Source: Escherichia coli (GTDB lineage Bacteria > Pseudomonadota > Gammaproteobacteria > Enterobacterales > Enterobacteriaceae). Taken from it: 64,000 nucleotides of DNA. The translations under genes were made by a program, and so were the position numbers. Shown one piece after another: positions 17,091 through 53,376 of this stretch. The notes under the pieces are model-generated. The model was not told the origin of the DNA, did no database searches, and saw only the letters and a list, made by a program, of their open reading frames with translations. Numbering within the stretch: the stretch's first letter is position 1; each line of letters begins with the position of its first letter. The stretch lies in the NCBI RefSeq assembly GCF_003018255.1, contig NZ_CP027440.1; one strand, given 5' to 3'.

Positions 17091-18086
17091 ATGCCAGCAG
17101 AATCACACACTGTTTATCCCGCTTACCGTTTCTCGATTGCCCCGATGCTCGACTGGACGGACAGACATTGCCGTTATTTCCTGCGTCTGCTTTCCCGCAA
17201 TACGTTGCTGTATACCGAAATGGTGACCACAGGGGCGATTATTCACGGTAAAGGTGATTACCTGGCGTACAGTGAAGAAGAACATCCGGTAGCGTTGCAA
17301 CTCGGGGGTAGCGATCCGGCGGCGCTGGCACAGTGTGCGAAGCTGGCAGAAGCGCGCGGATATGATGAGATCAACCTGAATGTCGGCTGCCCGTCTGACC
17401 GGGTGCAGAACGGCATGTTTGGTGCGTGTCTGATGGGTAATGCGCAGCTGGTTGCCGACTGCGTGAAAGCGATGCGCGATGTGGTGTCGATTCCGGTGAC
17501 GGTGAAAACGCGTATTGGCATCGATGATCAGGACAGCTATGAATTTCTCTGCGATTTCATCAACACCGTTTCCGGCAAAGGTGAGTGTGAGATGTTCATC
17601 ATCCACGCACGTAAAGCCTGGCTTTCTGGGTTAAGTCCGAAAGAAAACCGTGAGATCCCGCCGCTCGATTATCCGCGTGTGTATCAACTGAAGCGTGACT
17701 TTCCGCATCTGACGATGTCGATTAACGGTGGTATCAAGTCGCTGGAAGAAGCTAAAGCGCATTTGCAACATATGGATGGCGTGATGGTCGGGCGCGAGGC
17801 GTATCAGAATCCGGGTATTCTGGCGGCGGTAGACCGAGAGATTTTTGGTTCCTCGGATACTGATGCTGATCCGGTGGCGGTAGTGCGCGCCATGTATCCG
17901 TACATTGAGCGTGAACTCAGCCAGGGTACGTATCTCGGCCATATTACCCGGCATATGCTGGGCTTGTTCCAGGGTATTCCTGGCGCGCGGCAGTGGCGGC
18001 GTTATTTAAGTGAAAATGCCCATAAAGCGGGTGCAGACATTAATGTGCTGGAACACGCGCTCAAACTGGTGGCGGATAAGCGTTAA
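17091..18086 (+). CDS. dusA: tRNA-dihydrouridine synthase A
   Basis: 331 aa ORF with Dus-family motifs (APMLDWTD); start per ORF track. Confidence 0.88.
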
Positions 18087-18121
18087 CTTTTCACCAAAAA
18101 GTAGTCAAATTCACCACGCCC

Positions 18122-18146
18122 TGCGCCCCGTCGCGGGGCGTTTTGC
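18122..18146 (+). terminator. intrinsic terminator after dusA (CGCCCCG-TCG-CGGGGCG then TTTT)
   Basis: GC hairpin followed by T-run. Confidence 0.75.
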
Positions 18147-18168
18147 TGTTAAATCAATAGATTATTTT

Positions 18169-18185
18169 TGGCATGATTCTTGTAA
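18169..18185 (+). promoter_or_regulatory. candidate sigma-54 promoter of pspG (TGGCAT-N5-TTGTA)
   Basis: GG-N10-GT element about 35-50 bp upstream of pspG start; resembles the pspA promoter as I recall it. Confidence 0.55.
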
Positions 18186-18219
18186 TGCCAGCAAGAGATT
18201 TCATATTTGGGAGAGCATC

Positions 18220-18462
18220 ATGCTGGAACTACTTTTTGTAATTGGCTTTTTTGTCATGCTGATGGTCACCGGTGTTTCGTTGCTGGGTATTATCGCCGCG
18301 CTGATTGTGGCGACGGCCTTTATGTTCCTCGGCGGTATGCTGGCATTGATGATTAAGTTGCTGCCGTGGCTGCTGTTGGCGGTTGCGGTGGTGTGGGTGA
18401 TCAGGGCGATTAAAGCACCAAAAGTGCCGAAATATCAGCGTTATGACCGCTGGCGTTACTAA
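18220..18462 (+). CDS. pspG: phage shock protein G
   Basis: ORF track 150 aa overlaps dusA; ATG at 18220 (MLELLFVIGF) gives known 80 aa membrane protein. Confidence 0.85.
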   Translation: MLELLFVIGFFVMLMVTGVSLLGIIAALIVATAFMFLGGMLALMIKLLPWLLLAVAVVWVIRAIKAPKVPKYQRYDRWRY

Positions 18463-18597
18463 GGGATTGTGCGGATGATCACAACCTAAGGTTTTATCCT
18501 TAGAACAAAATAGGAATTGATAATCAAATCTGTCATTATTGCGCGTCAAACAAATTCATCGAGCTGTACCCTACATACAGCCGAACTATAAAAGAAA

Positions 18598-18625
18598 GGG
18601 CTTCCCAGGTGGAAGCCCAATTTCT
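18598..18625. terminator. bidirectional terminator between pspG and qor (GGGCTTCC-loop-GGAAGCCC flanked by T-rich runs on both strands)
   Basis: Perfect 8-bp inverted repeat between convergent genes. Confidence 0.75.
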
Positions 18626-18626
18626 T

Positions 18627-19610
18627 TTATGGAATCAACAGGCTGGAACCCTGCGTCGCCCGGCTTTCCAGAATCTCATGCGCACGCCGCGCATCCTTCA
18701 GCGGATATTTCTGCTGCTCGGCGACATCGACCTTAATCACACCGCTGGCAATCAAAGAGAACAGTTCATTACTGGCCTCGGTTAATTCCTCCCGCGTGGT
18801 GATATAGCCTTGCAGGGAAGGGCGTGTCACATACAACGAGCCTTTCTGATTGAGAATGCCTAAGTTCACACCGGTAACCGCACCTGATGAGTTGCCAAAA
18901 CTCACCATTAAGCCGCGGCGTTGCAGGCAATCCAGCGACCGTTCCCAGGTGTCTCTGCCCACTGAATCGTACACCACGCGCACTTTCTTACCACCGGTGA
19001 TCTCTTTTAACCGCTCGACCAGATTCTCTTCACGATAGTTAATAACCTGCCACGCGCCCGCTTTTAGCGCACTCTGCGCTTTTTGCGCGGTTCCTACGGT
19101 GCCGATAAGTTTCGCGCCAAGGGCTTTTGCCCACTGGCAGGCAATCAAGCCAACGCCGCCAGCCGCTGCGTGGAACAGGAACTGCTCATCGGGTTTAATT
19201 TCATAGGTTTTGCGCAGCAGATAATAAACCGTTAAGCCTTTCAGGAAGGATGCCGCAGCTTGCTCAAAAGAAATTGCCGCAGGCAGAATCGCCGCTTTAT
19301 CCGCATTAATGTTATGCACAGAGCTGTAAGCGCCTAATGCCGATTGTGCATAGACTACGCGATCGCCTGCCTTAATATGCTTTACACCACTGCCGACTTT
19401 ACTCACGATGCCTGCCGCTTCGGTGCCTAATCCGCTGGGTAGCGATGGCGGCGGGTAAAGGCCGCTGCGGATATACGTGTCGATAAAATTGATGCCGATG
19501 GCTTTATTTTCGACCTGGATTTCATTCTCCGCCGGATCGGCAGGAGTGAACTCTACGGCTTGAAGTACTTCCGGGCCACCGTGCTTGTGAAATTCAATTC
19601 GTGTTGCCAT
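18627..19610 (-). CDS. qor: NADPH:quinone oxidoreductase Qor
   Basis: ORF track 363 aa; start set at MATRIEFHKH giving known 327 aa. Confidence 0.9.
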   Translation of the reverse strand: MATRIEFHKHGGPEVLQAVEFTPADPAENEIQVENKAIGINFIDTYIRSGLYPPPSLPSGLGTEAAGIVSKVGSGVKHIKAGDRVVYAQSALGAYSSVHNINADKAAILPAAISFEQAAASFLKGLTVYYLLRKTYEIKPDEQFLFHAAAGGVGLIACQWAKALGAKLIGTVGTAQKAQSALKAGAWQVINYREENLVERLKEITGGKKVRVVYDSVGRDTWERSLDCLQRRGLMVSFGNSSGAVTGVNLGILNQKGSLYVTRPSLQGYITTREELTEASNELFSLIASGVIKVDVAEQQKYPLKDARRAHEILESRATQGSSLLIP

Positions 19611-26446: not shown

Positions 26447-29269
26447 TTACAGCATCGGCTTGAGGAAGCGCGCCGTATGCGAAGCTTCGCACTCTGCGAC
26501 GGTTTCTGGCGTACCGGAGACGAGGATTTCGCCGCCCCCACTGCCGCCTTCCGGTCCCAGGTCGACAATCCAGTCAGCGGTTTTGATCACGTCGAGATTG
26601 TGCTCAATTACCACAATGGTATTGCCCTGATCGCGCAGTTTATGCAGTACGTCGAGCAGTTGCTGAATATCGGCGAAGTGCAGACCGGTGGTCGGCTCGT
26701 CGAGAATATACAGCGTCTGCCCGGTGCCGCGTTTTGACAGCTCACGCGCCAGCTTCACGCGCTGGGCTTCACCACCAGAAAGTGTGGTTGCGGACTGCCC
26801 GAGGCGAATGTACGTCAGGCCAACATCCATCAGCGTTTGCAGCTTACGCGCCAGAGCTGGCACCGCATCAAAGAACTCACGCGCCTCTTCGATGGTCATA
26901 TCCAGCACTTCGTGGATGGTTTTGCCTTTGTACTTAATCTCCAGCGTTTCACGGTTATAGCGTTTGCCTTTGCACTGGTCGCACGGTACGTAAATGTCCG
27001 GCAGGAAGTGCATCTCCACTTTGATCACGCCGTCGCCCTGACAGGCCTCGCAGCGTCCGCCACGGACGTTAAAGCTGAAACGCCCTGGCGTATAACCACG
27101 CGCACGGGATTCTGGTACGCCTGCGAACAGTTCGCGTACAGGTGTAAACACGCCGGTATAGGTTGCCGGATTGGAACGTGGGGTACGACCAATTGGGCTT
27201 TGGTCGATATCGATCACTTTGTCGAAATGTTCCAGTCCCTGAATATCGCGATACGGTGCCGGTTCGGCGATGGTCGCACCATTCAACTGGCGTTGGGCAA
27301 TCGGGAACAGTGTGTCGTTAATCAGTGTCGATTTACCGGAACCTGAAACCCCTGTGATGCAAGTAAACAGACCCACCGGCAGCGTCAGCGTCACGTCTTT
27401 CAGGTTGTTGCCGCGTGCGCCTGTCAGTTTCAGCACTTTTTCCGGATTTGCCGGAACGCGCTTCTTCGGCACTTCAATCTTGCGTTTACCGCTCATGTAC
27501 TGCCCGGTCAACGACTCTGGCACCGCCATTATTGCTTCCAGCGGACCTTCCGCGACGACTTCACCGCCGTGTACACCCGCACCCGGACCGATATCGATCA
27601 CATGATCAGCGGCGCGAATCGCGTCTTCGTCGTGCTCCACCACAATCACGGTATTACCGAGATCGCGCAGATGGATAAGCGTACCCAGCAGGCGCTCGTT
27701 ATCGCGCTGGTGCAGGCCGATAGACGGCTCATCCAGCACGTACATCACGCCAACCAGGCCCGCACCAATCTGGCTCGCCAGACGAATACGCTGGGCTTCA
27801 CCGCCGGAAAGTGTCTCTGCTGAGCGGGAAAGTGTCAGGTAATTCAGGCCGACGTTAACGAGGAATTTCAGACGATCGCCGATCTCTTTAAGGATTTTTT
27901 CTGCAATCTTCGCCCGCTGACCTGCGAGTTTGAGATTGTTGAAGAATTCCATCGCATGACCGATGCTCATGTCGGAGATGGCGGGCAGCGGCGTATTCTC
28001 GACATACACGTGGCGTGCTTCCCGACGCAGACGGGTTCCTTCGCAGCTGGCGCACGGACGATTGCTGATAAACTTGGCTAATTCTTCACGTACCGCGCTG
28101 GATTCCGTCTCTTTATAACGGCGCTCCATATTGTGCAGCACGCCTTCGAACGGATGACGACGAATGGAGGTATCGCCACGATCGTTCATGTATTTGAATT
28201 CAATGTTTTCTTTGCCAGAACCGTACAACACCACTTTATGCACGTTCGCGCTCAGGCTGCCCCACGGCGCTTCGACGTCGAACTTATAGTGATCTGCCAG
28301 CGATTTCAGCATCTGGAAATAATAGAAGTTGCGGCGATCCCAGCCACGGATCGCACCGCCAGCCAGCGACAATTCCGGATTCTGGATCACGCGGTCAGGA
28401 TCGAAATATTGCTGTACGCCAAGACCGTCACAGGTCGGGCAGGCTCCCGCCGGGTTGTTAAATGAAAACAGGCGAGGTTCCAGCTCGCGCATACTGTAAC
28501 CGCAAATCGGGCAGGCAAAGTTGGCGGAGAACAGCAGCTCTTCCGCTTTCGGATCGTCCATATCCGCCACTACCGCGGTACCACCGGAAAGCTCCAGCGC
28601 GGTTTCAAACGACTCGGCAAGACGTTGGGTAAGATCGTCACGCACTTTGAAGCGATCAACCACCACTTCAATGGTATGTTTCTTTTGCAGTTCCAGTTTC
28701 GGCGGATCGGAAAGATCGCAGACTTCGCCATCAATACGAGCACGGATGTAACCCTGACTTGCCAGGTTCTCCAGCGTTTTGGTGTGTTCGCCTTTGCGCT
28801 CTTTAATGATTGGCGCGAGCAGCATCAGGCGTTTACCTTCCGGCTGGGACAACACGTTATCCACCATCTGACTGACGGTTTGCGCTGCCAGCGGGACGTC
28901 GTGGTCCGGGCAGCGCGGCTCACCGACGCGGGCGAACAACAAACGCAAATAGTCGTGGATTTCGGTGATTGTCCCCACCGTAGAACGCGGGTTATGAGAC
29001 GTCGATTTCTGCTCAATCGAGATGGCAGGAGAAAGCCCCTCAATATGATCGACGTCCGGCTTTTCCATCAGTGACAGAAACTGCCGCGCGTAGGCGGAAA
29101 GGGATTCAACGTAACGGCGCTGCCCTTCGGCATATAAGGTGTCGAAAGCGAGCGAGGATTTGCCAGAACCCGAAAGCCCGGTCACGACAATGAGTTTGTC
29201 GCGGGGGATAACGAGGTTGATGTTTTTGAGATTATGGGTGCGGGCGCCCCGAACTTCGATCTTATCCAT
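26447..29269 (-). CDS. uvrA: excinuclease ABC subunit A
   Basis: 940 aa ORF with duplicated ABC ATPase motifs; recognised as UvrA. Confidence 0.97.
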
Positions 29270-47583: not shown

Positions 47584-48176
47584 AACAGTCACAAATACCG
47601 GTGAAAATGCTGACAACACTCACGATTTTGATGGCATTTCTCTGTATCGGCAGTTATCTGTTAAGCCCAAAATGGCAGGCGGTACGTGCGGAGTATCAGC
47701 GTCAGCGCGATCCGCTGCATCAGTTTGCCAGCCAGCAAACCCCAGAAGCGCAGCTTCAGGCATTGCAGGATAAAATCCGCGCTAATCCACAAAACAGCGA
47801 ACAGTGGGCGTTACTGGGCGAGTACTATCTGTGGCAAAATGATTACAGCAATTCGCTGCTGGCGTACCGTCAGGCGTTGCAACTACGTGGTGAGAACGCT
47901 GAACTGTATGCGGCGCTGGCGACGGTGCTTTATTACCAGGCCAGCCAGCATATGACCGCCCAGACACGCGCAATGATCGATAAAGCCCTCGCGCTGGACT
48001 CTAACGAAATCACCGCTCTGATGCTGCTGGCTTCCGATGCGTTTATGCAGGCGAATTACGCGCAGGCCATCGAACTATGGCAAAAAGTGATGGATCTCAA
48101 CTCACCCCGGATCAACCGGACACAGCTGGTCGAGTCGATTAATATGGCGAAATTGTTGCAGCGGAGATCAGATTAA
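47580..48176 (+). CDS. nrfG: NrfG (TPR protein)
   Basis: ORF track 220 aa; ATG at 47580 ([10 protein letters not shown]) gives known 198 aa; 4-bp overlap with nrfF. Confidence 0.88.
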
Positions 48177-49840: not shown

Positions 49841-50240
49841 GCCGGGGATATCCACCCGGCAATATGTGGATGCCTGATGCGACGCTTACCGCGTCTTATC
49901 AGGCCTACGCCAGACTGCGCAATAGCTTGATTTAGGGTGATTTTGTAGGTCGGATAAGGCGTTTACGCCGCATCCGACATCAATATCTGATGCGACGCTT
50001 GCCGCGTCTTATCAGGCCTACGCCAGACTGCGCAATAGCTTGATTTAGGGTGATTTTGTAGGTCGGATAAGGCGTTTACGCCGCATCCGACATCAATATC
50101 TGATGCGACGCTTACCGCGTCTTATCAGGCCTACGCCAGACTGCGCAATAGCCTGATTTAGCGTGATTTTGTAGGTCGGATAAGGCGTTTACGCCGCATC
50201 CGACATCAATGCCTGATGCGACGCTTACCGCGTCTTATCA
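49841..50240. repeat. BIME array: about 3.5 tandem 113-bp units of paired REP elements between gltP and yjcO
   Basis: TGATGCGACGCTT recurs at 49875, 49988, 50101, 50214. Confidence 0.92.
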
Positions 50241-51031: not shown

Positions 51032-53179
51032 TTACGCCAGTGCCGCTTCGCGCAGGCGAGTTTTCAACTTGTTGTACTCGTCAATCACGTACTGCTCGGC
51101 GGCGCGCTGATCGGCGATCGGCTCGACGCGCACGGCGCAGTATTTGTATTCCGGCGTTTTCGTAATCGGGCTTAAGTTTTCGGTCACCAGCTCGTTACAG
51201 GCACCAATCCACCACTGGTAGGTCATGTAAATCGCCCCTTTGTTCGGACGATCGCTGACCTGCGCACGGGTGATAATTTTGCCTTTACGCGAGTGCACCC
51301 AAACCAATGCCTCATCTTCAATACCCAGACGTTTGGCGTCTTCGGTATTGATTTGTGCGTAGCCAGGTTCATCAGCCAGCGCCGCCAGTGCCGCACAGTT
51401 ACCGGTCATCGAACGGCAAGAGTAGTGACCAACTTCACGCACCGTTGACAGTACCATCGGGTATTCGTCGGTGAGTTTGTCGATTGGCGCTACCCAGTCG
51501 CAGGTGAAGAACTGCGCCAGACCGTTCGGGGTATCAAACTTCTCTTTAAACAGATAAGAAGTCCCCTGATCGGCATCTGAAGTATCGCGGCAAGGCCACT
51601 GAATGAAGCCCAGTTCGCCCATTTTCTCGTAAGTCGCACCGTAGAAATCCGGGCACAGATGACGCAACTCGTCCCAGATCTCCTGGGTGTTGTTGTAGTG
51701 CATCGGATAACCCATACGAGTGGCAATTTCACTGATGATTTGCCAGTCCGTTTTCAGATCCCACTTCGGCTCAACCGCCTTGAAGAAACGCTGGAAGCCA
51801 CGGTCAGCCGCAGTAAACACGCCTTCATGCTCGCCCCACGACGTTGACGGTAAAATGACATCCGCCGCCGACGCGGTTTTGGTCATAAAGATGTCCTGAA
51901 CGATAACCAGTTCCAGATCTTCAAAGGCTTTACGTACTGCCGACAGTTCCGCGTCAGTTTGCAGCGGATCTTCGCCCATAATGTACGCCGCTCTCACTTC
52001 ACCATGCGCCACGCGGTGCGGCAGCTCGCTGATGCGATAGCCGGTATGAGCAGGCAGGCTTTCCACGCCCCAGGCTTTGGCGAATTTCTCGCGGTTAGCC
52101 GGATCTTTCACGTACTGATAGCCCGGATACGTATCCGGCAGCGCGCCCATATCGCAGGCACCCTGCACGTTGTTCTGACCACGAACCGGGTTTACACCCG
52201 CATGTGGCTTACCGAGGTTACCGGTCAGCATCGCGAGGCTGGTCAGAGAACGCACGGTTTCCACGCCCTGATAGAACTGGGTTACCCCCATGCCCCACAG
52301 GATGGCGGCGCTTTCTGCCTGGGCATACATCCGCGCCGCCTGACGAATCTCACTGGCGCTGACGCCGGTGATATCTTCAACCGACTCCGGCGTGTAGCCT
52401 TCAACGATTTTACGATACTCTTCAAAGCCTTCTGTACGGGAAGCGACGAACGCTTTGTCGTACAGATTTTCTTCAATAATGACATGGCCCATCGCATTCA
52501 ACAGCGCGATGTTCGAGCCGTTTTTCAATGCAATGTGCATGTCAGCAATGCGCGCGGTTTCAATTTTACGCGGATCGCAGACGATAATTTTCGCCCCGTT
52601 ACGTTTAGCGTTAATTACGTGATTCGCCACGATTGGGTGGGAATCCGCCGGGTTATACCCGAAAACGAACACTAAATCGGTATTATCAATTTCGTTAATA
52701 GCATTGCTCATTGCGCCATTACCGACCGATTGGTGCAGACCTGCAACCGATGGGCCGTGTCAGACACGAGCGCAGCAGTCAACGTTATTGGTACCAATAA
52801 CGGCGCGCGCAAATTTTTGCATTACATAGTTGGTTTCGTTACCCGTACCGCGCGAGGAGCCGGTCGTCTGGATGGCATCCGGACCGTACTTCTCTTTGAT
52901 GGCGCTCAGGCGCTCGGCAACGTAATTCAGTGCCTCATCCCAGGAAACAGGTTCGAGTTTGCCGCCACGCTGGCGACGGATCATGGGGGTTTTCAGGCGC
53001 GGGGTCAGGATCTGGGTATCGTTAATGAAGTCCCAGCCATAATAACCCTTCAGACACAGGGTACCCTGGTTGGTTTTCCCCTGCGCTGCCTCCGCCCGGA
53101 CGATTTTGCCGTTATCGACGACCAGGTTGATTTTGCAACCTGATGCGCAATAGGGGCAAACCGTGACGACTTTTTTCAT
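51032..53179 (-). CDS. fdhF: formate dehydrogenase H (selenoprotein; in-frame UGA at 52760-52762 decoded as selenocysteine, codon 140)
   Basis: ORF track splits gene into 139 aa (52760..53179) and 559 aa (51032..52711) pieces in the same frame; combined 715 codons matches FdhF. Confidence 0.93.
52715..52759 (-). other. SECIS stem-loop directly 3' of the fdhF UGA codon (mRNA: CACGGCCCAUCGGUUGCAGGUCUGCACCAAUCGGUCGG)
   Basis: Sequence read on minus strand matches the bacterial fdhF SECIS hairpin as I recall it. Confidence 0.85.
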
Positions 53180-53229: not shown

Positions 53230-53246
53230 ATGCATCTTTTATGCCA
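53230..53246 (-). promoter_or_regulatory. sigma-54 promoter of fdhF (TGGCATAAAAGATGCAT on minus strand)
   Basis: GG-N10-GC element about 50 bp upstream of fdhF start. Confidence 0.85.
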
Positions 53247-53376
53247 CATTTTATTTGGGGTCATTCCCTGATATTACGGGCACTATTTATTCAAAACTCT
53301 GACGAAAAACAGGCTGTCGTCAGTTTTGACGTGACGAAACGAAATACCGCGTGACAGCCATCACGCGGTAGACATT

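Follow-up and report, generated by a model that had tools for sequence, protein, structure and literature searches.

The sigma-54 promoter of Escherichia coli pspG carries GT at −12, a trait shared with the pspA promoter

Introduction

The closest described systems to the site analyzed here are the E. coli promoters of pspG (yjbO) and of the pspABCDE operon. In the abstract of Lloyd et al. 2004, pspG is said to be dependent on sigma-54, PspF, and IHF and to be under negative control by PspA. Transcription of both pspABCDE and pspG needs sigma-54 RNA polymerase activated by PspF (PMC3068692), and the dependence of pspG on PspF-activated sigma-54 RNA polymerase is also reported in PMC3709507. 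PspF has one UAS at pspG, with about 20-fold induction, and two at pspA, with about 100-fold induction, and the pspA promoter is IHF-dependent (PMC3709507). Membrane-stress induction operates through PspF and repression through PspA (PMC3068692, PMC3709507, and PMC2763126).

Genome-wide maps have since located the same promoter. The 17-mer TTGGCATGATTCTTGTA is the motif of sigma-54 ChIP-seq site OS40 (pspG), with a FAT of 15 and the EcoCyc status 'experimentally confirmed' (Bonocora et al. 2015, PMC4591121). Table 1 of that study gives a predicted start-to-gene distance of 25 nt for pspG, with a footnote that sets the start at the motif centre + 19, and sigma-54 overexpression raised only five genes with intergenic sites, pspG and pspA among them (PMC4591121). 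The dusA-pspG spacer was also bound by RpoN holoenzyme in vitro, as a gSELEX peak (PMC8743547). From Lloyd et al. 2004, the later maps, and EcoCyc, the pspG promoter is already known, and its GT dinucleotide at −12 is visible in published motif tables. When we searched the literature for papers that discuss the GT of the psp promoters explicitly, only motif tables came up, with no analysis. Here we compare the dusA-pspG region of one E. coli chromosome with these systems, using a stretch of 64,000 nt (hereafter the window) in which all coordinates are counted from the first base.

Materials and methods

The sigma-54 matrix was built on a leave-one-out basis from the 41 other 'intergenic sense' E. 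coli ChIP-seq motifs in Table 1 of Bonocora et al. 2015 (PMC4591121), and both strands were scanned. We used this matrix with exact p-values instead of the loose pattern TGGCAYN5TTGYW, which was dropped as a significance test, having 1 match in the window vs 0.52 expected and at least one match in 41 of 100 shuffles. The enhancer matrix spans 30 nt and was made from pspA upstream regions only, covering nine genera; beyond E. coli, the pspF-pspA intergenic regions came from Klebsiella, Citrobacter, Lelliottia, Pluralibacter, Cronobacter, Phytobacter, Leclercia, and Salmonella. A PspG alignment was used to scan species-representative genomes, giving 80 Enterobacteriaceae loci, or 81 sequences including the window.

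Results

Locus and gene neighbourhood

The window is E. coli chromosome with the gene order dusA-pspG-qorA-dnaB; qorA lies on the minus strand, convergent with pspG, and dnaB is next. An 801-bp query around the site matched 5,425 of 5,426 complete E. coli genomes, in which dusA, pspG, and qorA are annotated there (RefSeq), with 100% identity to one RefSeq genome and 95–99% to most. Homologues of PspG, named 'envelope stress response protein PspG', carry PF09583 (Pfam). The features of the region are as follows.

17091-18086, + strand: dusA, with its stop codon at 18084-18086
18088-18117, + strand: PspF enhancer (UAS)-like block TTTTCACCAAAAAGTAGTCAAATTCACCAC, located with the pspA-derived matrix, just past the dusA stop codon
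18116-18141, + strand: dusA intrinsic terminator hairpin from a terminator scan, with a G+C-rich stem of 10 bp and a T run after it
18152-18164, + strand: IHF core match AATCAATAGATTA to the consensus WATCAANNNNTTR, ending 4 nt before the sigma-54 17-mer
18168-18184, + strand: sigma-54 −24/−12 promoter (17-mer), a matrix match identical to the OS40 ChIP-seq motif
18195, + strand: predicted transcription start, 12 nt past T18183 (motif centre + 19), giving a 25-nt leader
18210-18216, + strand: Shine-Dalgarno-like GGGAGAG, read off the sequence; GGGAG is retained in orthologues
18220-18462, + strand: pspG coding sequence, an open reading frame of 80 aa plus stop, RefSeq 'envelope stress response protein PspG'
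18598-18618, no single strand: bidirectional terminator-like hairpin between the convergent pspG and qorA, from the terminator scan

The hairpin at 18598-18618 has a perfect 8-bp stem with T-rich tails on both strands and is likely common to pspG and qorA.

The −24/−12 element

A sigma-54-like element with the −24 GG and a GT dinucleotide at −12 had been predicted from the letters alone within 18160-18190, and this is what the region contains. The sequence TGGCATGATTCTTGTA occupies 18169-18184 (+) in the dusA-pspG intergenic region, in sense orientation, with its final base 35 nt upstream of the pspG start codon (ATG, 18220). Its −24 element is TGGCAT at 18169-18174, including the invariant GG at 18170-18171. 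At −12 the dinucleotide is GT at 18182-18183 and not the consensus GC: the G is retained, and T18183 stands where the consensus has C. The spacing is canonical, with 10 nt between GG and GT in the layout TGGCAT-N5-TTGTA. This −24/−12 geometry is the basis of the predicted start at 18195, which agrees with the 'distance 25' in Table 1 of Bonocora et al.

Comparison with a sigma-54 matrix, the check that the original prediction had proposed, ranked the 17-mer first in the window on either strand. At 17.07 bits it is 14th of the 42 known E. coli sites, within the range of verified sigma-54 promoters. From the exact score distribution, a match this good has p = 7.7e-7 per position, which amounts to 0.098 expected per window and 7.7e-5 per given 100-nt upstream stretch. 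C in place of T at −12 would raise the score by 3.9 bits. By score alone such a site occurs about once per 10 windows, and this, with the 3.9 bits lost to the missing C, counts against a promoter assignment; position, conservation, and the adjoining enhancer put the site well beyond chance.

The second-best match in the window, GTGGCATAAAAGATGCA at 53231-53247 (−) with 15.9 bits, is identical to the published fdhF sigma-54 motif (Bonocora OS41), and the window therefore has a second known sigma-54 promoter. Other high matrix matches at 48144-48160 (+), 26838-26854 (−), 54918-54934 (+), and 52529-52545 (−) are absent from the published ChIP-seq tables and were taken as chance.

A consensus GC at −12 is frequent in E. 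coli and not obligatory. Among 42 ChIP-verified intergenic sense sites, 37 have GC and five do not: GT is found in pspA, pspG, and ygeW (3/42), GA in hydN, and TC in glnH, and of these glnH, hydN, and pspA are EcoCyc-confirmed. The likeness to the non-canonical pspA promoter that was originally proposed held when the sequences were compared, as the MG1655 pspA promoter is TTGGCACGCAAATTGTA (OS15 in Bonocora et al.). TTGTA is thus common to pspA and pspG, as a shared trait and not as an established definition of the group.

Upstream control region

The pspA-derived enhancer matrix had its best match in the window at 18088-18117 (+), with 23.55 bits vs 12.2 for the next best and 7.5e-4 such matches expected per window. 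This block contains two TTCACCA direct repeats, 20 bp apart. A pspA-type enhancer directly upstream supports PspF control of pspG independently of the literature, and the predicted PspF/sigma-54 control is further backed by the OS40 ChIP-seq site, PMC3709507, and PMC3068692. The pspA upstream regions of the nine genera align gap-free from −100 to −55 relative to TGGCA. Across the 80 Enterobacteriaceae loci the pspG enhancer block was 80–100% conserved; where two copies of the repeat were present their spacing was 20 nt in 31 of 33 loci, and the proximal repeat lay 59–60 nt upstream of TGGCA.

Between the enhancer and the IHF box lies the dusA terminator, which abuts the proximal enhancer repeat. 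Across genera the stem persists, with compensatory changes (e.g. GCCCTGCGC/GCGGGGC, GCTCCGC/GCGGAGC, and GCCGCGC/GCGCGGC). A strong terminator at this position speaks against expression of pspG by read-through from dusA. The other route around a sigma-54 promoter, a sigma-70 promoter upstream of pspG, also found little footing, with no sigma-70-like match on the + strand within 17950-18650; on the − strand of the same interval there were two matches vs 1.1 expected, which is chance level.

The predicted IHF box fits the consensus, a motif low in information with 9 matches in the window vs 2.2 expected. A strict match at equal offset was present in 35 of 81 pspG loci, so it is position and similarity, rather than an exact consensus, that support the box. 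Upstream of pspA in the nine genera, a AAATCAATAAGATAA box similar to that of pspG stands at the corresponding place. Elsewhere in the window, two IHF-core copies at 49920-49932 and 50033-50045 (−) are identical (AATCAAGCTATTG) and 113 bp apart, which suggests a local repeat.

We know of no NtrC role at pspG. The dusA-pspG spacer (about 18090-18220) is also among the in vitro NtrC targets, with a 58% peak (PMC8743547).

Conservation across relatives

The −24/−12 motif was found upstream of pspG in 80 of 80 loci, 32–69 nt before the ATG, with a degenerate −24 element in two. The conserved islands of the dusA-pspG intergenic region were the enhancer block, the terminator stem, the IHF box, and the −24/−12 elements. 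Rare −24 variants were TGTCAT in Citrobacter werkmanii, which has lost the second G of GG, and TGGCGC in Enterobacter sp. RIT418. The pspG leader was about 30 nt longer in S. enterica subsp. arizonae and diarizonae and in Citrobacter koseri, at 64–69 nt from motif to ATG vs 35; the added nucleotides form a REP-like, palindromic insert rich in G+C, e.g. GTAGACCCGGTAAGCGC..GCCGGGCAA. Two records, titled 'Chryseobacterium sp. 18061' and 'MAG: Proteobacteria bacterium', also had a dusA-pspG locus of typical enterobacterial form, probably because the assemblies are contaminated or mislabelled.

At −12, TTGTA was present in 78 of 81 pspG promoters, TTGA in two, and TTGC only in Salmonella enterica subsp. 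diarizonae. By contrast, the −24 element varied at its sixth base (57 T vs 22 C), and the spacer had 13 variants. The TTGA carriers were an Enterobacteriaceae MAG and Trabulsiella guamensis. All nine pspA promoters, one set from nine genera with variable spacers, had TTGTA. Published ChIP motifs widen the comparison: TGGCATGATTTTTGTAAG for pspG and TGGCACGCAAATTGTATT for pspA in Salmonella (PMC3844500), and TTGGCACGTTTCTTGTAA for pspG and TTGGCACGACTCTTGATT for pspA in Y. pseudotuberculosis (PMC7657599). Neither Yersinia promoter has C, with TTGTA at pspG and TTGA at pspA. Promoters of the PspF regulon thus almost never have C at −12.

Such conservation suggests constraint on the T, within the limits of counts that come from phylogenetically related species and are not independent events. 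One explanation is that T at −12 is a selected feature of PspF-regulon promoters that would tune the sigma-54 fork-junction lock, for example so as to set basal level, response speed, or the need for PspF. We consider this nearly an even call, falling slightly on the doubtful side. The pattern itself speaks for selection: TTGTA persists in pspG while nearby positions drift, it is uniform in pspA, Yersinia lacks C in both promoters, and a C would add 3.9 bits yet is almost never present, in contrast to the GC of 37 among the 42 E. coli intergenic sense sites. Against selection, GT is present at ygeW and at a dcuD antisense site, both of them unrelated to PspF. At glnAp2, changes to the TGCA around −12 raise activator-independent transcription, and sigma-54 Region I contacts this position (summarised in PMC4551910), which speaks for this explanation; against it, no clear activator-bypass transcription was seen at pspA in vivo (PMC4551910), and our literature search found no functional comparison of T vs C at this position.

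Discussion

We conclude that the site is almost certainly the enhancer-dependent sigma-54/PspF promoter of the membrane-stress gene pspG. The sequence elements, their matches to independent matrices, and their conservation were computed here, whereas occupancy by sigma-54, dependence on PspF and IHF, and repression by PspA come from the literature; the precise start of transcription and whatever role the T may have are inferred. In the mechanism that we propose, sigma-54 RNA polymerase would form a closed complex on TGGCAT/TTGTA (18168-18184) and would be unable to melt the DNA alone. PspF would occupy the enhancer at about 18088-18117, and a bend by IHF at about 18152-18164 would bring it to the polymerase. 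ATP hydrolysis by PspF would then open the promoter, with transcription starting near 18195 and a leader of 25 nt ahead of pspG. In cells free of membrane stress, PspA holds PspF in an inactive state. At −12, T replaces the consensus C; it is tolerated, conserved, and common to pspA.

The T may have a more specific role. PspF is an activator that lacks a sensory domain, and its only control is exerted in trans by PspA. We tentatively propose, while judging it rather less probable than not, that from Escherichia to Yersinia selection has made the avoidance of C at −12 (TTGTA, sometimes TTGA) a signature specific to the PspF regulon, fitting the stability of the fork-junction lock to PspF. If this were true, the −12 sequence would serve to tune a promoter to one given enhancer-binding protein. 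What our analysis adds is modest: across dozens of genera, the pspA and pspG promoters both retain a base other than C at −12 although positions nearby drifted, and this gives a cheap, testable hypothesis on −12 tuning of enhancer-dependent promoters. The pspG promoter otherwise offers nothing new, and serves as a positive control in which a non-canonical sigma-54 promoter was recognized rightly from raw sequence.

A rival reading, in which the element matches by chance or binds sigma-54 without productive transcription and pspG is expressed by dusA read-through or from a sigma-70 promoter, is very improbable. In its favour, the loose pattern by itself has 0.52 matches expected per window, no transcription output is known for many of the sigma-54 sites in E. 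coli (PMC4591121), and Salmonella pspG, despite strong sigma-54 binding, rose just 1.4-fold with a promiscuous activator (PMC3844500). Against it, the motif, enhancer, and IHF box keep a conserved register across about 80 species, the terminator and the + strand sigma-70 scan leave little room for other sources of transcript, and the E. coli site is 'experimentally confirmed' in EcoCyc, with pspG responding to sigma-54 overexpression (PMC4591121). Stress induction of pspG is also reported to be lost in rpoN or pspF mutants or once the GG is mutated.

As a PspF-dependent sigma-54 promoter, the site in the window is the same object as the E. coli pspG (yjbO) promoter OS40, with the identical 17-mer, dusA-pspG context, and 25-nt predicted start-to-ATG distance; the window differs from the known promoter only by strain-level polymorphism elsewhere in the 801-bp query.

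The nearest system after this is the pspA promoter of the pspABCDE operon, which is dependent on sigma-54, PspF, and IHF. Both promoters have TTGTA at −12 and a TGGCAYG −24 element. Immediately upstream of −24 each has an AAATCAAT...GAT.A box, and the 30-nt enhancer, in the same orientation at both, contains two (A/T)TTC(A/G)C(C/T)A repeats spaced by 20 bp. They differ in the sixth base of the −24 element, which is T in pspG and C in pspA, and in the placement of the enhancer, which at pspG lies 13 bp nearer the promoter (−81 to −52 vs −94 to −65 for pspA, counted from the T of TGGCA). The pspG enhancer also scores 23.6 bits with the pspA enhancer matrix vs 35–42 for pspA sites. The dusA terminator embedded between enhancer and IHF site also sets pspG apart from pspA, as does the lack of a divergently oriented pspF.

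Canonical sigma-54 promoters (TGGCAC-N5-TTGCW; glnAp2, hypA, and norV) share with pspG the −24 GG, the −12 G, and their exact spacing, as well as an upstream enhancer and an IHF-assisted loop, whereas they have the C of the −12 GC where pspG has T.
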